Below are positions 8,205-39,198 of a DNA stretch of 64,000 nt, one piece after another. How positions within the stretch are numbered: position 1 is the first letter of the stretch; each line of letters starts with the position of its first letter. Made by a program: the position numbers and the translations under genes. The DNA is from an uncultured Gemmatimonadales bacterium (GTDB lineage Bacteria > Gemmatimonadota > Gemmatimonadetes > Gemmatimonadales > JACORV01), in assembly GCA_963835535.1 (NCBI GenBank), contig CAWIFL010000013.1, forward strand, positions 3,046-67,045, read 5' to 3'. The notes under the pieces are model-generated. The model searched no databases, was not told where the DNA came from, and worked only from the letters and a program-made list of their open reading frames with translations.

Positions 8205-9260
8205 TCACACCCAGGTCCGCTTCAGTTTGGCGACGGTCTCGATGCGCCGCTCGGCCAAGCGGTCGGCCGCGCGGTACGTGGGCAGGCCCTCTTCCTTCGC
8301 CAGCGCGAAGAGCCGGAGCAGCGTGTCGTAGATCTCTCCCGCCTTCCGCTGGGCCCGCTCCGCCGTCCACCCTTCCAGCTCACTGTTCACGTTGATGAGG
8401 CCGCCGGCGTTGATCACGTAGTCCGGCGCGTACAGGATGCCCTTCTCCTCCAGCATGTCGCCGTGCCGCTCCTCGGCGAGCTGGTTGTTGGCGCCTCCCG
8501 CCACGATCCTGACCTTCAGCTGCTTGAGGGTCGTGTCGTTGATCACGGCGCCGAGCGCGCAGGGCGCGAACACCTCGGCCTGTACCCCGTAGATCTCGTC
8601 GAGGCCCACCGCGCGGGCGCGGAAGTCCTCCACCACGCGCTTCACCTTCTCCGTGTCGATGTCGGTGACCACCAGCCGCGCCCCCTCCTCGTACAGGAAG
8701 CGGCACAGGTTGTACCCCACGTGCCCGCACCCCTGCACCGCCACGACCTTCCCGGCCAGGGTGTCGCTGCCGAACGCCGTCTTGGCGGCCGCCTTCATGC
8801 CGCAGTAGACGCCGTACGACGTGACCGGCGACGGGTCGCCCGACCGTCCCTGGAGGCCGACGACGTGGTCGGTCTCGAGGTGAATGTAGTCCATGTCGGC
8901 GGGGCTGGTGCCCACGTCCTCGGCGGTGATATAGCGGCCCTTCAGCGATTCCACGAACCGTCCGTGGGCGCGGAAGACGGCCTCGCGGTCGTGCGTGCCG
9001 TGGTCGGCGAGCACCACCGACTTCCCGCCGCCCAGCGAGAGGCCGGCGACGGCGGCCTTGTACGTCATGCCGCGCGAGAGACGCAGCGCGTCGATGATCG
9101 CGTCCTGCTCGTTCTTGTAGTGCCAGTACCGCGTGCCGCCGAGCGCGGGGCCGAGGGTGGTGTTGTGGATGGCGATGAGCCCCAGGTACCCGGACGACGG
9201 CTCGTGGCAGAAGATCAGCTGCTCGTGGTCGTGGGCGGCCAGCAGTTCGAAAATCTCCAT
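8205..9260 (-). CDS. Glu/Leu/Phe/Val dehydrogenase family, leucine-dehydrogenase-like
   Basis: ORF 8205..9260(-), 351 aa. Motifs: [20 protein letters not shown] (catalytic Lys box), Rossmann [18 protein letters not shown]. Confidence 0.85.
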
Positions 9261-29554: not shown

Positions 29555-29638
29555 GGAGGGGTAGACCTAACTGGTAAGGCAGCGGTCTTGAAAACCGCCG
29601 GGCGCAAGCCCTTGGGGGTTCGAATCCCCCTCCCTCCG
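29555..29638 (+). tRNA. tRNA-Ser (anticodon UGA)
   Basis: Hand-folded. Acceptor GGAGGGG/TCCCTCC plus discriminator G. Anticodon stem GCGGT/ACCGC with loop CTTGAAA (U33, UGA). Long variable arm (CGGGCGCAAGCCCTTG). T-arm GGGGG-TTCGAAT-CCCCC. No encoded CCA. The D-stem has one mismatch. Confidence 0.85.
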
Positions 29639-29696
29639 CTTCCGCTGTATCGCAACAAGTCAGGCTTGCTCGCATCCTGTCGGCCGGGCTACCTCC

Positions 29697-30152
29697 TCAC
29701 TGGATCGACACGGCGTAGTCGAGCGTGTCGTCGGCTTGCGAAACCTCGTTCCAGCCGATGATCCGAATCGTACCTGACCCGGCTTGCGCGAAGACCACCG
29801 CAGCCGAATGCGCGAACTGGTAGGACTTGCCCCCGCAAGTGTGATGTGCCGGCAATTTGACGATCACCGAATCAAAAGGCTCGACAACCGCCAGCGCCCC
29901 GGAGACCGTCGAATTGGTGTAGGCAGGCGTCACGCAGCCGTCGCCGAACGTATAGACCGTGACGCCTGCCGGCTGACCCGCGACCACCACGGACGGCACG
30001 CCCACTATCGGTCCGGCCGCGCTCGTCACGATCGTGCCAGGTTCCACGGCCCAACCGAATTCCTCCGGATTGTGGCACGCCAGCAGCCACAGGGCCGCCG
30101 CCGGCAACAGGGACAGCAGCGCACCTCGACGCGCGCGGGCACTGAATCGCAT
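29697..30152 (-). CDS. hypothetical lipoprotein
   Basis: Tail of ORF 29697..30344(-). GGAGG lies ~10 nt upstream of ATG 30152. N-terminus: MRFSARARRGALLSLLPAAALWLLAC (lipobox LLAC). The mature domain is beta-rich. Confidence 0.7.
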   Translation of the reverse strand: MRFSARARRGALLSLLPAAALWLLACHNPEEFGWAVEPGTIVTSAAGPIVGVPSVVVAGQPAGVTVYTFGDGCVTPAYTNSTVSGALAVVEPFDSVIVKLPAHHTCGGKSYQFAHSAAVVFAQAGSGTIRIIGWNEVSQADDTLDYAVSIQ

Positions 30153-30282
30153 AGCCACCTCCCAAAGCCTAGCGCGGCGGTCACCCGCCCGCCGCCCATC
30201 TGCAAGCCGTTGAAGCAGCGGTCCCGATCCTTCCGGCGCGCTTTTCGCAGCGAAAGGAAGGCGACCCTCACGGGAGCCCGTC

Positions 30283-30972
30283 GTGCCACCACTCCGTTCA
30301 GCCGCGTTGCGCCCCCTCCTCGCGGCCGCCGTTCTCGTCCTCACGGGAACCGCCGCCCGCGCCCAGGGGCCTACCGGAACAATCCGCCTCCCCGAGCCGC
30401 ACCGTCAAGGCGCAATGTCGCTGGAGGCGGCGCTCGCCGCACGCCACTCGACCCGGGCGCTCACGCGGGACTCCGTGGACCTGGCCGACGTGGCGCAGCT
30501 GCTCTGGGCCGCGCAGGGCATCAACCGTCCCGACGGGCACCGGACCGCGCCCGCGGCCGGCGGGATCTACGCGCTCGAGCTCTACGTCGTGGCCGCGCGC
30601 GTCCGCGGCCTCCCGGCGGGCGTCTATCACTACCGCCAGGCCGGGCATCTCCTCGAGACGGTCTCCGCCGGCGACCGGCTGCAGGCGATCACCGACTCCG
30701 CGACGCACCAGGCGTGGCAGGCCGACGCCGCGGTCGCGGTGATCTTCGCGGGCGACTACCAGCGGCTCGGCGCGCGCTTCCGCGACCGGGCGGAGCGCTA
30801 CGTGCCGATGGAAATCGGCTTCGCCGCGCAGAACCTCTACCTCGAGGTCGCCGCGCTCGGCCTCGGCACGACGTTCGCCGGCTCGTTCCAGGACAGCACG
30901 ATGGCGCGCCTCGTCGGCCTGCCGGCGGGCCAGACACCGCTCGGCATCATGCCGGTCGGGCATCCGCGCTGA
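30283..30972 (+). CDS. SagB/ThcOx-type nitroreductase-family protein with N-terminal signal peptide
   Basis: ORF 30283..30972(+), GTG start. Signal-like N-terminus: MPPLRSAALRPLLAAAVLVLTGTAARAQG. Nitroreductase-like blocks: RHSTRAL, LLWAAQG, GGIYALELY, PMEIGFAAQNLYL. Confidence 0.75.
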   Translation: MPPLRSAALRPLLAAAVLVLTGTAARAQGPTGTIRLPEPHRQGAMSLEAALAARHSTRALTRDSVDLADVAQLLWAAQGINRPDGHRTAPAAGGIYALELYVVAARVRGLPAGVYHYRQAGHLLETVSAGDRLQAITDSATHQAWQADAAVAVIFAGDYQRLGARFRDRAERYVPMEIGFAAQNLYLEVAALGLGTTFAGSFQDSTMARLVGLPAGQTPLGIMPVGHPR

Positions 30973-31102
30973 CGGCGGTGCGGATCTTGCGACGCCCCCA
31001 GGTGTCTCGCGCGGCGACGTCATGGCTCCTGGGCTGCAGGCGCTGAACGGCCGATTCCCTCCGAATGCCCCCATCCCCGGGCGGGGGCTGCCGCAACCTG
31101 AG

Positions 31103-31645
31103 ATGCTGCAAATCCCGACACGGCAGGTCCGCCTTGTGCGGGCCTGTGGCGCCTTCGCGACGTCGCTGCTCGCGGCCGGTATGCTGGCCCTGGGCCCCGC
31201 CGCCGTGATCGGACGGTTCGGCGCCGGCGGCCCGGTGGTCATCGCGCCGGAAGCCGCCACGACTCGCTTCCTCCGGGTCGCCGCCTCCGCGCGCGAGCCG
31301 TTCGTGCGTTGGCTGTTGGACCGCCCGTCCAAAGACGTCCGCGCCCGGAGCACGGTGGTGGTCGCGGGTGCCACCGGCTCTCCCCGCGGCAGGGATGACG
31401 CGGTGGTGATGCCGTGCCGCGCACCCGGACTCGGGAGCGGCGCCGCAGCCTGCTTCCCGAGTCGGGAGCTGCGGATGCGCTCGGGAGCCAGTGAGATCCT
31501 CGCGCTCTCGCGGCGGCCCCGGCCTCCGCCCGCTCCGGGCATCCGGACCGCACACCCATTCGCAGCGTTGATCGCGTTCAATCCGGCTTCGTCGCCGCCT
31601 CATCGGTGGCGCGGGCCGGTTTTTTCGTTGTCCCCTCGAGTCTGA
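31103..31645 (+). CDS. possible hypothetical membrane-anchored protein (weak call)
   Basis: Part of ORF 31022..31645(+) from MLQIPTRQVRLVRACGAFATSLLAAGMLALGPAAVIG. GC3 looks coding-like for roughly the first 130 codons and then decays. I recognise no homology. The 3' end overlaps a terminator-like hairpin. Confidence 0.3.
   Translation: MLQIPTRQVRLVRACGAFATSLLAAGMLALGPAAVIGRFGAGGPVVIAPEAATTRFLRVAASAREPFVRWLLDRPSKDVRARSTVVVAGATGSPRGRDDAVVMPCRAPGLGSGAAACFPSRELRMRSGASEILALSRRPRPPPAPGIRTAHPFAALIAFNPASSPPHRWRGPVFSLSPRV
31583..31625 (+). terminator. terminator/attenuator-like hairpin immediately upstream of amt
   Basis: Nested stem CCGGC (31583-87)..CGCCGCC (31593-99), loop tcatc, GGTGGCG (31605-11)..GCCGG (31615-19), followed by TTTTTT (31620-25). 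The amt SD AAGGAG is at 31646-51. Confidence 0.5.
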
Positions 31646-31660
31646 AAGGAGATGCGCGGG

Positions 31661-32902
31661 ATGCTCCATCTCGACACGGGCAACACGGGGTTCATGCTCC
31701 TCTGCTCCAGCCTCGTGATGCTGATGACGCCGGGCCTGGCGTTCTTCTATGGCGGCCTGGTGGGCCGGAAGAACGTGCTGGCCATCATGATCCAGAGCTT
31801 CGTCTCGATGGGCTGGACGACGGTGATCTGGTGGGTGTGCGGATTCTCGCTGTGCTTCTCGGGGAACCTCAAGACCGGCACCGACTTCTTCGGCATCCTC
31901 GGGAACCTGGACTGGGCCTTCCTGCGCAACATCACCCTCAGCACGCCCTCGCCCAACGACACGATCCCGATGATCGTGTTCTGCGCGTACCAGATGATGT
32001 TCGCCATCATCACCCCGGCGCTCATCACGGGGGCGTTCGCCAACCGCGTAACCTTCAAAGCGTACATGCTGTTCCTCACCGGCTGGCTGCTGTTCGTCTA
32101 CTGTCCCTTCGTCCACATGATCTGGGGCGGCGGGATCCTGCAGCAGTGGGGCGTGCTCGACTTCGCCGGCGGGATCGTGGTGCACAACATCGCCGGCATG
32201 GCCGCGCTCGCCTCCGTGATCTACATCGGCAAGCGGAAGGTGGCGGACCGCGGTCCCCACTCCATTCCGCTGGTCGCGCTCGGCACCGGCCTCCTCTGGT
32301 TCGGGTGGTACGGCTTCAACGCGGGGAGCGAGTTCCGCGTGGACTCGACCACGGCGGTGGCGTTCCTCAACACCGACGTGGCCGCCTCGTTCGGCGCGGT
32401 CGCGTGGCTGTTCGTGGACTGGCTGTTCGGCAAGAAGCCGCACTTCGTCGGCCTCCTGACCGGGGCCGTGGCGGCGCTCGCCACCATCACGCCCGCCGCG
32501 GGCTACGTCTCCCCCTCGACCGCCGTGCTGATCGGCTGCGTCGCGGGCGTGGTGTGCTACTTCGCGGTGTCGTTGAAGAACCGCATCGGCTGGGACGACG
32601 CGCTCGACGTCTGGGGCGTGCACGGGGTCGGAGGGCTGCTCGGCATAGTCATGCTGGGCCTGCTCGCCACCACCGCCTTCAACCCCAACGGCACCAACGG
32701 CCTGTTCGCGGGCAACGCAGTCTTCTTCGGCAAAGAGATCGCGGCCGTCGCGCTGTCGTCCGTCTGGGCCTTCGCCTTCACCTACGCGATGCTGGCCATC
32801 ATCAACCGGATCACGCCGGTACACGTGTCGAGTTCCGACGAGGAGATCGGGCTCGACGCGTCGCTGCACGGCGAGACGGCGTACCTCGACGCGACGGGGT
32901 GA
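31661..32902 (+). CDS. amt: ammonium transporter (Amt family)
   Basis: ORF 31652..32902(+). Motifs: LVMLMTPGLAFFYGG, DFAGG.VVH, GWYGFNAGS, GVHGVGG. ATG 31661 has better spacing (9 nt) to AAGGAG than ATG 31652 (0 nt). Confidence 0.95.
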   Translation: MLHLDTGNTGFMLLCSSLVMLMTPGLAFFYGGLVGRKNVLAIMIQSFVSMGWTTVIWWVCGFSLCFSGNLKTGTDFFGILGNLDWAFLRNITLSTPSPNDTIPMIVFCAYQMMFAIITPALITGAFANRVTFKAYMLFLTGWLLFVYCPFVHMIWGGGILQQWGVLDFAGGIVVHNIAGMAALASVIYIGKRKVADRGPHSIPLVALGTGLLWFGWYGFNAGSEFRVDSTTAVAFLNTDVAASFGAVAWLFVDWLFGKKPHFVGLLTGAVAALATITPAAGYVSPSTAVLIGCVAGVVCYFAVSLKNRIGWDDALDVWGVHGVGGLLGIVMLGLLATTAFNPNGTNGLFAGNAVFFGKEIAAVALSSVWAFAFTYAMLAIINRITPVHVSSSDEEIGLDASLHGETAYLDATG

Positions 32903-32914
32903 AGGAGTATCGCG

Positions 32915-34032
32915 ATGCGAGTCGTCGCGCATCCTGGCGGCCGGGGTGGCGGCGCTGCTGTCGCCCCGGCTGCTCGCCGCCCAGGCTCCGCCTTCCAATC
33001 CGGAGCCGGGGCACCAGGCCATCGAGTTCCACGGCCTGGTCTCGACCAGCTTCTCCTACAACTTCAACGTGCCCCCGTCGCGCACCAACCAGTTCCGGGT
33101 GTTCGACTACGACGACGACGCTTTCCGCATCGACCTCGTCGAGCTGGTCGTCCAGCGCCCCGTCGCGGCGCCGGGCGACTTCGGCTTCCGGGTGGACTTC
33201 ACCGCCGGCGCGGTATCGCAGAGTCGTGGCCTCGCGCGGCCTGTTCCGCGACTCCACAGGCGAGGGCCAGGACATCGACTTCCATCAGGCGTTCGTCAGC
33301 TTCGTCGCCCCCGTGGGCAGCGGGCTGCGCCTGGACGCCGGCAAGTTCATCACCGGACTGGGCTACGAGGTGATCGAGGGATACGACGGCTGGAACGACA
33401 ACGCCTCGCACTCCTTCCTCTTCGGCTACGCCATCCCGTACACCCACACCGGCGTCCGGGCGAGCTACGCCTTCTCGCCGGTGGTCTCGACCATGCTGAT
33501 GGTGGCGAACGGATGGGACGACGTCGAGGACAACAACCGGGGCAAGACCGTCCACCTCCAGCTCGCTCTCACGCCGTCGAGCCGCCTGGCAATCACCCTC
33601 AACGGCATCGCCGGGCCCGAGCAGACCAACGACGACGTGCACTACCGCGACGTGCTCGACGCCGAGGCGACGTGGAAGCCGACCGAGCATCTCTCGCTGG
33701 GCGTGAACGGCGACTGGGGCCGCGAGACCGCGGCTGCGCCCGGCGGCCTCATGGCGGTGTGGACGGGCGCCGCGGGTTACCTGCGGCTGTCTCACAAGGA
33801 GGTGTCGCTCAGTCTCCGGGCGGAGCGGTTCGCCGACCGGGATGGTGCGCGCACCGGCACGCCGCAGACGCTTTCGGAGATCACCGTGACGCCGGAGCTT
33901 CGGCTCGGCGCGAGCTGCCTGCTGCGGGGTGATCTGCGGCTGGACACATCGGATCACGCGGTCTTCGAACGGATCAGCGGCACCGCGAAGACCCAGCCGA
34001 CCGTGTCCGTGAACGTGCTCTACCACTTCTGA
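32915..34032 (+). pseudogene. OmpL-like beta-barrel porin (bbp2 type) downstream of amt, reading frame broken twice
   Basis: SD GAAGGAG (32901-07) plus ATG 32915 open frame C. The signal peptide and first strands (..SSRILAAGVAALLSPRLLAAQAPP..IEFHGLVSTSFSYNFN..DFGFRVDFTAGAV) are in the frame of ORF 32946..33932. The rest (..GLFRDSTGEGQDIDFHQAFVSF..GKFITGLGYEVIEG..NVLYHF) is in the frame of ORF 31606..34032. Shifts are near 32921 and 33205-33226. Confidence 0.65.
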
Positions 34033-34055
34033 CCGGCCCACCGGCCGGTGGCGGC

Positions 34056-34618
34056 TTACTCCTCTCGCGAGGATCGCGCCGCGACGACTTCGGCGACGGT
34101 CGGGCCCTTCTCGCTCGACGCGTCGAACTCGATCGCGTCGCCGGCCGCGACGTGGCCTTCCAGCACGACCGACAGGTAGAACCCGGTGCGCCCGGTCTGC
34201 AGGAAGCGCCGCTCGATGTCGGGCCGGTCGATCCGCATCAGGAGCTTATAGCACGGCAGCCGCGGCCGCGTGACCTGGAACGCCGCCGTGCCGATCCGCA
34301 GGCGGTCCCCGATCCGCACGATCTCCTCGCTCAGTCCGAGGGTCGTGAGGTTCTCGCCGAAGCCGCCCCAGCCGAGGTCCGGCATGTCCAGCTCGGCGCG
34401 CCACAGCTCGTAGTGCTCCGAGGGATAGGCGTACACCGCCTTCGCCGCGCCGCCGTGGACCTCGCGCCGTCGGCTTGGCCGTCCCCCTCGAGATTGAGCC
34501 TCCCCACACGCACGGGCCCGGCCACCGGTGCCTTCCAGATGCCGGTACGCACGCGTGTGCCCCGCCACTCCACTTCGCGCGGGAGCCCGACGTTCACCGA
34601 AACGAGGGATGCGCTCAC
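34056..34618 (-). pseudogene. MOSC domain protein (YiiM-like), frameshifted
   Basis: The N-terminus MSASLVSVNVGLPREVEWRGTRVRTGIWKAPVAGPVRVGRLNLEGDGQAD is in ORF 34331..34618(-). The continuation ..VHGGAAKAVYAYPSEHYELW..FGENLTTLGL..IGDRLRIG..FQVTRPRLPCYKL.. is in ORF 34056..34568(-). The junction is near 34462-34472 and is consistent with a 1-nt deletion. Confidence 0.7.
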
Positions 34619-34625
34619 GGATGCC

Positions 34626-35363
34626 TCAGGGCCGCACGGTCTCGAGCCACGTCCGCGCGATCACGCCGTGGCCGGCCACCGTCGGATGCACGCCGTCCGC
34701 CGCCCAGTACGCCGGCGGCGCCTCGCGCGAGAGCCGCTCGAAGAGGCCGTGGAGCGGCACGAAGGTCGCGCCCGCGCGTTCCGCCACGCGTGCGGCGACC
34801 GCGCGGCGCAGATCGAACTCCGGGAACCAGGCCTCCGTCACCGCACCGGTCCGGAGCACGAACGGCTCCAGCACCACGAGCCGCACACCCGGCAGCGCCT
34901 GCCTGGTGCGGTCGAGGAGCGCGCCGTAGCCCGACTCGTACTGCTCCACCGTTCCCGTGTAGCTCCCGTTCAGCTTGTGCCAGATGTCGTTCACGCCGAT
35001 GAGGATGCTGAGGATGTCCGGCCTGAGGTCGAGCGCATCGGTCTGCCAGCGCGCGTCGAGGTCCGGCACGGTGTTGCCGCTCACGCCCCGATTGAAGATC
35101 TGGAGATTCGCTGCCGGGTCGCGCAGCAGCTCGGACGCAATCAGCAGCGGATAGCCGGTGCCGAGGGCGGCGGCCCGGTTCGGCTCGGCTACCGTGCGGT
35201 CGCGCCCGCAGTCGGTGATCGAGTCACCCTGGAACAGGATCACCGAGCCCGCGGCCGGGCCGTGCGCCAGCGGCGCAAGCTGCGGCCAGAATGCCAGGCC
35301 CATCGCGCCCCCCGTGGTCACCACGAATTCGCGCCGCGACACGTCGCCCGCGTGGTGCGCCAT
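34626..35363 (-). CDS. SGNH/GDSL hydrolase family protein with Tat-like signal
   Basis: ORF 34626..35399(-). GGGAGGAG lies 5 nt upstream of ATG 35363. N-terminus: MAHHAGDVSRREFVVTTGGAMGLAFWP. Catalytic blocks: FQGDSITD, NRGVSGN, LIGVND, DGVHP. Confidence 0.8.
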   Translation of the reverse strand: MAHHAGDVSRREFVVTTGGAMGLAFWPQLAPLAHGPAAGSVILFQGDSITDCGRDRTVAEPNRAAALGTGYPLLIASELLRDPAANLQIFNRGVSGNTVPDLDARWQTDALDLRPDILSILIGVNDIWHKLNGSYTGTVEQYESGYGALLDRTRQALPGVRLVVLEPFVLRTGAVTEAWFPEFDLRRAVAARVAERAGATFVPLHGLFERLSREAPPAYWAADGVHPTVAGHGVIARTWLETVRP

Positions 35364-35571
35364 CGCTACTCCTCCCGGTACCGGTCCGTACAAGACCACA
35401 TCATGACGTGCCGGCCCGCAAGGGGGCGTCCCGGAGAATCCCGAGTCCGGCGCTTGGCGCCGCGCGGTGGTCGCCGGAACCGGCGGGGATCGTGCGAACG
35501 GCGCGAAGAATGGCCGCGGCGACCGGGCAGCTTCCTCCGGCGCCCCCGCGCAGCGATATTCCCTGCCGCCC

Positions 35572-35662
35572 GGAGAGGTGGCCGAGAGGCTGAAGGCGGC
35601 GGTTTGCTAAACCGTTTAACGGGCTAATACCTGTTACGAGGGTTCGAATCCCTCCCTCTCCG
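35572..35662 (+). tRNA. tRNA-Ser (anticodon GCU)
   Basis: Hand-folded. Acceptor GGAGAGG/CCTCTCC plus G. D-arm GTGGCCGAGAGGCTGAAGGC. Anticodon stem GCGGT/ACCGT with loop TTGCTAA. Long variable arm. T-arm GAGGG-TTCGAAT-CCCTC. Confidence 0.9.
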
Positions 35663-35665
35663 CTT

Positions 35666-35735
35666 GTGATCCGCGTCCGCTTCGCTCCATCCCCTACCGG
35701 CACCCTGAAGGCCGGCGGGGCCCCGAGGAAGGCCA

Positions 35736-35743
<8 letters not shown>
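35666..35743 (+). pseudogene. 25-codon relic of a gltX 5' end (or gltX-derived uORF) between tRNA-Ser and glnS
   Basis: GTG 35666 begins 4 nt after the tRNA. It encodes [25 protein letters not shown]. The first 12 residues are identical to the intact gltX start at 37448 ([20 protein letters not shown]). About 46/57 nt are identical, and most differences are synonymous. Its TGA (35741-43) overlaps the glnS ATG (35736). Confidence 0.5.
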
Positions 35744-37447
<1,704 letters not shown>

Positions 37448-37451
<4 letters not shown>

Positions 37452-38743
37452 TCCGCGTCCGTTTCGCCCCGTCCCCCACCGGCAGCCTGCACGTCGGGGG
37501 CGCGCGCACCGCGCTCTTCAACTGGCTGTTCGTCCAGCACGCCCGGATGCACGGCCCCCCCTCCGACCGCGACGCTGTGTTCGTCCTCCGCGTCGAGGAC
37601 ACCGACAAGCAGCGCTCCACGGACGAGTTCACGAAGGTCATCCTCGACGGGATGACGTGGCTCGGCCTGACGTGGGACGAGGGCCCGCTCTTCCAGGGCG
37701 CCGCTCTCGCACGCCACCAGGCCGACGCGCATCGGCTGCTCGACGAAGGGAAGGCGTACCTCGACGACGGGGCGATCCGCTTTCGGGTGAGCCACGAGGA
37801 AGTGGCGTGGGAGGACGCGGTCCACGGGCCGATCACCTTCCACGGGAAGGACCTCGAGGACTTCGTCATCCTCCGCGCCGACGGGACGCCCGTGTACAAC
37901 TTCGCGGTGGTCTCCGACGACATCGCGATGCGGATCACACACGTCTTCCGCGGCGACGACCACATCTCGAACACGCCGAAGCAGATCCTGCTCTACCGCG
38001 CCTTCGCTTTGCCGGTGCCCGTCTTCGGCCACGTGCCGATGATCCTCGGCACCGACGGCAAGAAGCTCAGCAAGCGCCACGGCGCCACCGCCGTGGCCGA
38101 CTATCAGCACCTGGGGATCCTGCCGCATGCGATGGCGAACTTCCTCGCGCTCCTCGGCTGGAGTCCCGGCGGCGACCGCGAGCTCTATTTCGACGTCGCG
38201 GAGCTGATCGAAGCGTTCACGTTCGAGGGGGTGCTGAAGAAGGCGGCGGTCTTCGATCCGAAGAAGCTGGAGTGGATGAACGGCGAGCACTTGAGGCACC
38301 TCGGTCCCGCGCGGCTGGTGCCCCAGGTATTCGAGCCCTCCGACGCGGTGGACCAGCAGCGGGCGGAGGCGATCGTGGCTGCCGTCCTGCCGCGGAGCTG
38401 GACCGTGCTCGACGTCCGTCGTCAGGCCCGGCTGCGCGCGGGGCTCGACCCGGTGGTCTTCGACGAGAAGGCCACGGAAGCAGTCGCCAAGGACCCGGCG
38501 GCCTACCGGGCGGCGCTGACCGACGCGGTCCAGGCGCTGGAGGGCGTGTCGGACTGGACACCGGCCCTGCTCGAGGCCGCGCTGCGCCAGCTGGCCGTGG
38601 CGAAGGGCCTCAAGCTCGGCGCGGTGATGCAGCCGGTGCGCATCGCGCTCACCGGGGGGCTTGTTTCGGAGCCGGTCAACGAGCTGGTGGCCGTGATCGG
38701 GAAGGACGACGTGCTGAAGCGGCTGCGCGCCGCGGCCGGCTAG
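37448..38743 (+). CDS. gltX: glutamate--tRNA ligase
   Basis: Tail of ORF 35924..38743(+) from [28 protein letters not shown]. Motifs: [28 protein letters not shown] 37448 overlaps the glnS stop (GTGA). 431 aa. Confidence 0.9.
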
Positions 38744-39198
38744 GCGAGGTCGGTCCTCGTCGGAACGCGCGGCAGCGTCTTCCAGGCCGCGCGGAGGAAG
38801 GCCTCGCAGTGTCCCTCCTTGAGGAACACCTCGACGGCTTGCGCAGTGGTGTACCGGTCCATCCCCCAGAGACTCGCCCGCTTCTCCTCGCCGTCCCACC
38901 TGCCCTGGACGAATACGCGGTCGTCGCGCCGGACGAGCATCGGCAGCTCCTCGACCAGGCTGGCGGCGAGGGCGTTGACGCCGGGACCGCCCACGGCGAC
39001 GGCCGAGCAGAGGTGGAAGATCCGGTTTTGCGCGAACCAGGCGTCGGAGACGACGACGGCGCCGCGGAAGGTCTTCCCTTCCCCGCGCCGGTCGATCTCG
39101 GCCTTGAGCCGGTAGGCGAGCGGCCGGTCGTTCATCTCGGCCGGGATCTCGGTCCCGGTGACGATCAGGATCGTGTCGTCCGTGTCGATCAGCTTCAC
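38740..39198 (-). CDS. hypothetical protein (152 aa), unknown family
   Basis: Tail of ORF 38740..39633(-) from VKLIDTDDTILIVTGTEIPAEMNDRPLAYRL. The composition is non-repetitive and GC3 is coding-like. GTG 39198 overlaps the upstream stop (GTGA). Confidence 0.6.
   Translation of the reverse strand: MKLIDTDDTILIVTGTEIPAEMNDRPLAYRLKAEIDRRGEGKTFRGAVVVSDAWFAQNRIFHLCSAVAVGGPGVNALAASLVEELPMLVRRDDRVFVQGRWDGEEKRASLWGMDRYTTAQAVEVFLKEGHCEAFLRAAWKTLPRVPTRTDLA

Follow-up and report, generated by a model that had tools for sequence, protein, structure and literature searches.

A remnant of the gltX 5' end probably marks the insertion point of glnS behind tRNA-Ser(GCU) in a Gemmatimonadales subclade

Results

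Gene order at the locus

The window examined here, a 64-kb stretch of DNA with 73% GC from a Gemmatimonadales bacterium, carries a tRNA-Ser(GCU) gene, a short open reading frame (ORF), glnS and gltX, in that order and all on the forward (+) strand. This study concerns the short ORF and how it came to lie between the tRNA gene and glnS. The tRNA-Ser(GCU) gene has no encoded CCA and was placed at 35572-35663 by ARAGORN; the Rfam match (RF00005, 58.4 bits) places it at 35572-35662. The ORF starts with GTG at 35666, 2-3 nucleotides (nt) past the tRNA end and not 4 nt after it as an earlier sequence-only reading had stated. It runs for 25 codons (35666-35743), and its TGA overlaps the glnS start (ATGCCTGA). 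The glnS gene (35736-37451) encodes a glutaminyl-tRNA synthetase (GlnRS) of 571 amino acids (aa). Its identity was confirmed by Pfam matches to the catalytic domain (PF00749, E = 5e-107) and the anticodon-binding domains (PF03950, 1e-28; PF20974, 8e-21). A Shine-Dalgarno (SD)-like GAGGAAGG, read from the sequence at 35725-35732, ends 3 nt before the glnS ATG. The gltX gene (37448-38743; PF00749, PF19269) encodes a 'short' type glutamyl-tRNA synthetase (GluRS) of 431 aa, and its GTG overlaps the glnS TGA (GTGA).

Similarity of the short ORF to the 5' end of gltX

The first 57 nt of the ORF (35666-35722) and the 5' end of the intact gltX (37448-37504) form copies 1 and 2 of a direct repeat with 46/57 ungapped identity. 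The match is clear over nt 1-42 (37/42 identical), weaker over nt 43-57, and has ended by codon 17-19. Both copies encode the same first 12 residues, and third positions account for 7 of the 11 differences. Upstream of the two start codons the flanking 30 nt are unrelated (10/30). The sequence-only reading had described the ORF, the 12 shared residues, the level and type of nucleotide difference, the stop overlapping the glnS start and the beginning of similarity at the start codon, and all of these were reproduced. When the 57-mer was slid over both strands of the window, the mean match was 17.4 (standard deviation 3.5), placing 46/57 about 8 standard deviations out. The best other match in the window was 33/57, one instance of which is the HIGH region of glnS itself at 35820; the gltX match is thus far better than that to another class I HIGH region. 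With 25 codons against 431, the ORF is unable to encode the enzyme. On this sequence comparison the ORF is a true relic, that is a pseudogene fragment, of the gltX 5' end.

Position of gltX in related genomes

A GluRS protein scan with one genome per species yielded 80 Gemmatimonadales loci (individual loci are given below by L numbers). A tRNA-Ser(GCU) gene lay upstream of gltX on the same strand at 72 of these, and within 120 nt at 62 of the 80. The tRNA-Ser(GCU) sequence is nearly identical across all related loci. The gltX gene starts 1-5 nt past the tRNA in L004, L006, L008, L009 and L012, the closest relatives that lack glnS at this locus. It opens there with the same GTGATCCGCGTCCG..., with ATG instead in L008. 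The tRNA-gltX junction is therefore ancestral, strongly in favour of the sequence-only reading, which had asked whether gltX directly follows this tRNA where glnS is absent. The relic start occupies the same position as the gltX start in these relatives.

Downstream of gltX, two small ORFs (D1 and D2) and an aminotransferase gene are the same in the tRNA-gltX, glnS-tRNA-gltX and tRNA-relic-glnS-gltX arrangements. This indicates that the right-hand side of gltX was never disturbed. An ancestral order of tRNA-gltX-glnS, with glnS inserted downstream of gltX, was ruled out as the junction between gltX and its downstream genes is ancestral.

Across Gemmatimonadales, the gltX start lies 1-6 nt after the 3' end of a tRNA-Ser(GCU) gene that lacks an encoded CCA, with no SD and no room for a promoter. 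This abutment is seen at L004:4127-4222, L006:1640-1735, L012:9908-10003, L009:229-325, L008:3147-3246 and L163:9745-9843, and at 35572-35668 of the window for the relic. Such an arrangement would imply a joint tRNA-mRNA transcript and a near-leaderless gltX mRNA produced by tRNA 3' processing.

Distribution and decay of the relic

The order tRNA-relic-glnS-gltX was found in 10 independent assemblies: the window, L001, L002, L003, L007, L014, L015, L170, L171 and L172, the last three retrieved through GlnRS homologues. L005 is of the same type, its sequence being cut inside glnS. In L015 glnS is broken by frameshifts, and the GTGA overlap of glnS and gltX is kept in all nine relic-bearing loci with an intact glnS. 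The relics carry the signature GCTCCATCCCCGACCGGCACC (by codons, GCT CCA TCC CCG ACC GGC ACC) and share derived states seen in no intact gltX, namely GCT at codon 7, CCA at codon 8 and ACC or ACG at codon 13. The shared position and derived states indicate one insertion event in a common ancestor.

Among the 10 relics there were at least 47 substitution events, comprising 16 synonymous, 30 nonsynonymous and 1 stop. For single substitutions placed at random on the relic consensus, the neutral expectation is 29% synonymous, 69% nonsynonymous and 1.5% stop. Mean pairwise identity of the relics was 0.76; four-fold sites of the same genomes gave 0.82 in glnS and 0.73 in gltX. The substitution ratio and this four-fold-like identity indicate that the relic evolves at about the neutral rate, with an unconstrained peptide. 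In line with this, the relic peptides diverge (VLRVRF, VVRFRC, VTRFRFAPSFKG, VIRMRF). Deletions have removed 12 nt in L002, 21 nt in L014 and 2 nt in L171; the L171 relic has GCG in place of GTG, and that of L003 contains an in-frame TAA. In L166, whose GlnRS is 87% identical to that of the window, the tRNA is followed by 13 nt (TTGAGGAGTGCCC) with an SD and then by the glnS ATG. As L166 has no relic, the relic is dispensable. SD motifs homologous to that of the window (GGGAG/GAGGAG) are present in L002, L014 and the relic-less L166. The relic thus shows no sign of purifying selection on peptide or nucleotides (neutral ratio; missing in L166), and appears to be decaying by substitutions and deletions without evidence of function.

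In one stretch, where every other relic reads CTGAAGGCCGG, the L002 relic (8232-8288) reads CTGCACGTCGG, in full agreement with gltX nt 40-50. Given the nested position of L002 within the relic clade, this patch is probably a short gene conversion from its own intact gltX, 1.7 kb away.

Origin of the downstream gltX

In the GluRS tree, the gltX that follows glnS nests in the native 'short' GluRS family, as sister to the tRNA-adjacent gltX of L004, L006 and L012. It lies far from the 490-500-aa GluRS that accompany the nearest outgroup GlnRS genes. The sequence-only reading had proposed that a glnS-gltX cassette recombined into an ancestral tRNA-Ser/gltX junction. Synteny bears out the ancestral junction. 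A foreign cassette is not supported, because gltX nests in the native family and its downstream neighbours are ancestral.

The same reading took the excess of synonymous differences between relic and gltX to imply a diverged allele. This is not statistically required. Differences at positions 15 and 54 are later synonymous changes or polymorphisms in the intact gene, those at positions 30 and 51 are window-specific changes in the relic, and the changes in the relic are neutral.

In the same genome pairs (window 35736-38743 against L001, L002, L003, L007 and L014; means given above), glnS had consistently higher four-fold-site identity than the gltX next to it. Together with a partly different grouping of L003 by glnS and by gltX, this contrast gives a hint of recombination within the operon or of different codon constraints in the two genes.

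Genomic contexts of glnS

In this group glnS behaves as a mobile gene. Genes encoding GlnRS with 92-96% identity to that of the window stand in the relic arrangement, and more distant ones stand elsewhere. At 88% identity (L161 and L162; L161:3146-5063), glnS lies alone after groES-groEL with its own promoter-like TTGCCC-N17-CATACT. At 84-86% (L010, L163 and L167; L163:7866-9841, L167:5384-7841), it has its own TTGCCG-N17-GATACT and precedes the tRNA by 50-160 nt; the L167 copy has tRNA-Ser(UGA) on one side and, on the other, the expected tRNA-Ser(GCU) site, just before which the contig ends. In L166 (87%; L166:2879-4699), glnS comes directly after the tRNA and gltX does not follow. The outgroups L164 and L168 (82% and 77%) have the order gltX-glnS with a different GluRS. 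The next-nearest GlnRS matches, at about 74%, are named by source as Aminicenantes or Acidobacteria. In a neighbour-joining GlnRS tree, twelve sequences formed one group with 100% support, with L166 as the earliest branch of the Gemmatimonadales-type genes; support for the branching order of the arrangement types was weak.

In close relatives, an orthologous glnS with a promoter of its own stands beside groESL or upstream of the tRNA, and the relic therefore probably does not mark the first entry of GlnRS into the lineage. Most likely it reflects the relocation or re-insertion of glnS where the lineage already possessed the gene. The groESL-linked site was sought as an 'empty site' in the window and related loci and was not present in them.

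A second relic was sought upstream of glnS in L161, L163, L164, L166 and L167, and only L167 showed a match. Its glnS leader (L167:5940-6000) holds CCGCGACCGCTTCGCC, which matches gltX nt 6-21 at 15/16 positions (16/19 by eye over nt 4-22). This may be an older relic or a chance match, and we do not rely on it (P about 0.03 against shuffles, before correction for five tests). In L163, 6 nt separate a -10-like GATACT from the ATG of glnS, and the glnS mRNA of that genome may thus be leaderless.

A scan of metagenome contigs with GlnRS returned matches of 69% identity or less, from other lineages only, which were of no use for the relic; gltX/glnS adjacency was common among them, mostly in the order gltX-glnS. 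Peat DNA metagenome contigs break at the relic and thus revealed no excision polymorphism; one low-depth tRNA-gltX contig came from a relative.

Expression of the locus

An alignment of the DNA upstream of tRNA-Ser(GCU) from 13 loci contained only one conserved promoter-like motif in otherwise unalignable sequence. The motif of the relatives, TTGGCG-N17-(G/C)ATATT, is position-homologous to TTCCTC-N17-GATATT at 35532-35560 (+ strand) of the window, a putative promoter seen by alignment only. A consensus promoter and terminator scan of 35300-39000 called no promoter-like or terminator-like site, the tRNA motif included. The promoter that precedes glnS in L161, L163 and L167 was not found in the window.

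Both the relic-glnS and the glnS-gltX junctions are bridged by metatranscriptome contigs of related strains. In further RNA contigs the tRNA runs straight into gltX, the pattern that relatives with the ancestral order should give. These observations are consistent with a single transcription unit, tRNA-Ser-(relic)-glnS-gltX, that would be read from the tRNA promoter.

An Rfam scan of 35300-37700 at E <= 1 returned the tRNA only, with no aminoacyl-tRNA synthetase leader RNA, T-box or other cis-regulator. RNAalifold over the relic gave a consensus of -7.6 kcal/mol with an unfavourable covariation term, and hence no conserved structure.

Additional observations at the locus

The last ~8 codons of glnS (GAPGAPQQ and similar; 37425-37447 in the window and homologous positions in L001-L172) are variable and GC-rich. 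A self-complementary repeat, GGCGCGCC-G-GGCGCGCC, is found at this end in L001, and the window has a near-variant of it. The variable end replaces the native ...IEKAT* of the 564-aa form, and the frame always closes on the TGA inside gltX GTGATC.

The GluRS of the window subgroup (427-431 aa) lacks a segment of ~45 aa near residues 95-100. The missing segment (CFCT...YDRRC...) is a Cys-rich, putative zinc-binding insertion of the catalytic domain and is present in the GluRS of Gemmatimonadaceae and outgroups. The Pfam match to the GluRS catalytic domain is split into two stretches.

Upstream, tRNA-Ser(UGA) (29555-29639) and tRNA-Ser(GCU) (35572-35663) lie ~6 kb apart in the window and 62-86 nt apart in L009 and L017. 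The cargo between them in the window (29555-35571) comprises genes for a nitroreductase, an ammonium transporter, an OmpL-like porin, a MOSC protein and a GDSL lipase. The same place holds 2-4 kb of different cargo in other relatives. As the cargo differs among relatives, the interval between the two tRNA-Ser genes is an insertion hotspot.

Discussion

A model for the insertion of glnS

Taken together, our results are best explained, with high probability, by a relic that is a non-functional remnant of the gltX 5' end and marks one insertion of glnS at the tRNA-gltX junction. In the ancestral state, gltX would have started 1-6 nt after tRNA-Ser(GCU) and, with no room for its own promoter, presumably depended on the tRNA promoter for transcription. 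A segment of ~1.75 kb consisting of glnS and its SD region, without a promoter of its own, would then have entered this junction in the ancestor shared by one soil/peat subclade. The first 50-57 nt of gltX would have ended up flanking the inserted gene on both sides. The upstream copy would have stayed by the tRNA as the relic, and the downstream copy would head the intact native gltX, whose GTG would from then on overlap the glnS stop. Under this model translation of glnS relies on its own SD and that of gltX on stop/start coupling; the relic changes at the neutral rate and is worn away by substitutions and deletions. Two molecular routes may be envisaged. The segment could have been copied in by two template switches, or inserted illegitimately with target duplication. 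Alternatively, a circular fragment with glnS and a gltX 5' end could have integrated by a single crossover. Of the sequence-only reading, the relic and the ancestral junction therefore stand; the foreign cassette and an upstream ORF (uORF) function are not supported, and a diverged allele is not required.

The relic provides a dated and position-exact record of the wiring of a second Glx-family synthetase gene into an existing tRNA/synthetase transcription unit. It indicates that, on one occasion and in one defined Gemmatimonadales subclade, glnS came under the tRNA-Ser promoter, itself a putative element, and became coupled to the native gltX. The synthetase start that abuts a tRNA 3' end is conserved and unusual, and draws attention to possible leaderless translation generated by tRNA processing.

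Alternative explanations

Several points weigh against this model. The 57-nt direct-repeat structure fits more than one molecular route, the occurrence of glnS in at least three other contexts in relatives identifies no single source location, and the RNA evidence consists of assembled contigs of related strains with possible DNA carry-over. Over nt 1-42, the reconstructed ancestral relic and ancestral gltX differ at four third positions and one second position, and over nt 43-57 by several nonsynonymous differences. This pattern is mildly suggestive, and at most marginally so, of divergence under coding constraint (P about 0.03-0.08). The mostly synonymous differences over nt 1-42 (4/5) would suit a history in which the relic is the resident gltX allele and the intact gltX came with glnS as a cassette from a diverged relative, replacing the rest. 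The partly different grouping of L003 by the two genes and their four-fold identities (0.82 vs 0.73) would also suit it, both suggesting recombination within the clade. We nevertheless consider such a replacement unlikely, given that the GluRS tree places the downstream gltX beside that of L004, L006 and L012, that its junction with the downstream genes is ancestral and that, with changes assigned to branches, the excess of synonymous differences is not significant. Moreover, no lineage with a free glnS-gltX cassette was found, and the nearest outgroup GlnRS genes stand in gltX-glnS order with a very different GluRS of 490-500 aa. In another scenario, glnS first lay upstream, as in the glnS-tRNA-gltX order of L010, L163 and L167, and a tandem duplication of glnS-tRNA-gltX' was followed by loss of the first glnS and the second tRNA, with the effect of shifting glnS locally to the other side of the tRNA. 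A duplication ending 57 nt into gltX would give exactly the observed junction between the gltX fragment and the glnS leader, and in those three genomes glnS does lie 50-160 nt from the same tRNA gene. It is very unlikely all the same: three events are needed, the relic clade has the GDSL lipase gene and no remnant of a first glnS upstream of the tRNA, the glnS promoter of L161, L163 and L167 is missing from the window, and branch support among the arrangements in the GlnRS tree is weak. Finally, the similarity of relic and gltX could be attributed to chance, or to the composition and motifs of GC-rich HIGH-region DNA, in a genome with 73% GC and strong codon bias and for an enzyme whose RFAPSPTG motif is common to all GluRS. 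This has practically no probability and is refuted by the window background (~8 standard deviations; 33/57 for another class I HIGH region), by the synteny of relatives, in which the relic position is exactly that of the gltX start, and by the tRNA upstream of gltX at 72 of 80 loci; the relic has also been retained by descent in 10 assemblies.

The remaining points against a non-functional remnant concern its reading frame. All 10 relics have a start codon 0-3 nt from the tRNA end and an open frame that reaches the glnS start region. Two of the three relic deletions are multiples of three, and the 2-nt deletion in L171 is offset by an upstream TTG. These features would fit a relic kept as a translated uORF, with a near-leaderless GUG exposed by tRNA processing, 25 codons and a UGA overlapping the glnS AUG; in this way glnS, and gltX via GTGA, would be tied to the tRNA transcript. 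In the outgroup operon L164, gltX and glnS are connected by the same ATGnnTGA geometry, and since gltX of relatives starts 1-6 nt past the tRNA without an SD, initiation at this place must work in the group. On closer inspection, the GTG and its frame are kept in nine of the 10 relics, that of L171 having a frame only via the TTG 2 nt upstream, and the L003 frame stops 4 nt before the glnS ATG. Each of these items of frame conservation is within chance in 73%-GC DNA, and two in-frame indels out of three are not significant. Among the 47 events, ~1.6 start-destroying changes were expected and 1 was observed; for stop-creating changes the figures were ~0.7 and 1. The peptide lacks conservation, synonymous and nonsynonymous changes stand in a neutral ratio, glnS has its own SD-like GAGGAAGG, and L166 does without the relic. 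The uORF coupled to glnS, which the sequence-only reading had offered as its alternative, thus has no support beyond chance, and we regard a uORF function as distinctly improbable. We also think it doubtful that gltX is expressed by tRNA punctuation throughout the order, with the relic keeping the initiation site from which ribosomes pass to glnS and then gltX, and with the repeats letting glnS pop out. If this were true, homologous recombination between the 57-nt direct repeats could excise glnS as a circle that is re-inserted elsewhere, which would explain at least four places of glnS in close relatives with an intact tRNA-gltX restored. The preferred explanation thus remains a single insertion of glnS that left a non-functional gltX 5' remnant behind.

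Comparison with known systems

We found no description of this locus in the literature. In mitochondria, tRNA punctuation releases leaderless mRNAs by tRNA excision (PMC3790967). The gltX start of relatives likewise abuts the tRNA 3' end (gap of 1-6 nt), and the relic keeps that start; unlike the mitochondrial case, this is a single locus on a bacterial chromosome, where processing and leaderless translation would be expected from the gene arrangement. The locus also resembles coupled uORFs with overlapping stop and start codons (ATGnnTGA, GTGA), in that stop and start share nucleotides at both the relic-glnS and the glnS-gltX junctions. It departs from them in that the relic ORF is not conserved beyond neutral expectation, whereas the GTGA of glnS and gltX is kept wherever glnS is intact (9/9 relic loci).

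Integrase-borne genomic islets are likewise associated with tRNA genes, where insertions cluster. Here, cargo between tRNA-Ser(UGA) and tRNA-Ser(GCU) is variable and glnS is found next to tRNA-Ser(GCU) in three arrangements. The repeat, however, lies in gltX and not in a tRNA 3' end. No integrase gene or partial tRNA copy was found in 35300-38800, and the insert holds glnS only. Duplication of the attachment (att) site of an integrase island was ruled out for these reasons. Bacterial GlnRS genes have a history of horizontal transfer (PMC3927822, PMC5388404). The patchy placement of glnS in these genomes and its nearest relatives outside the family, at 74-82% and from other lineages, are in line with this, but the relic marks a relocation or insertion within a lineage and not demonstrably a first acquisition.

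The closest parallel is with 5' gene remnants beside insertions. As in those, a short truncated copy of the neighbouring gene is present, a direct repeat flanks the insert, and the copy is neutral and lost in some lineages. It differs in that the duplicated target of ~57 nt is far longer than those of the transposase type and in that no mobile-element gene accompanies the insert. Genuine but ordinary, the relic thus belongs to a known kind of feature; it marks an insertion point and is informative about the history of the locus.

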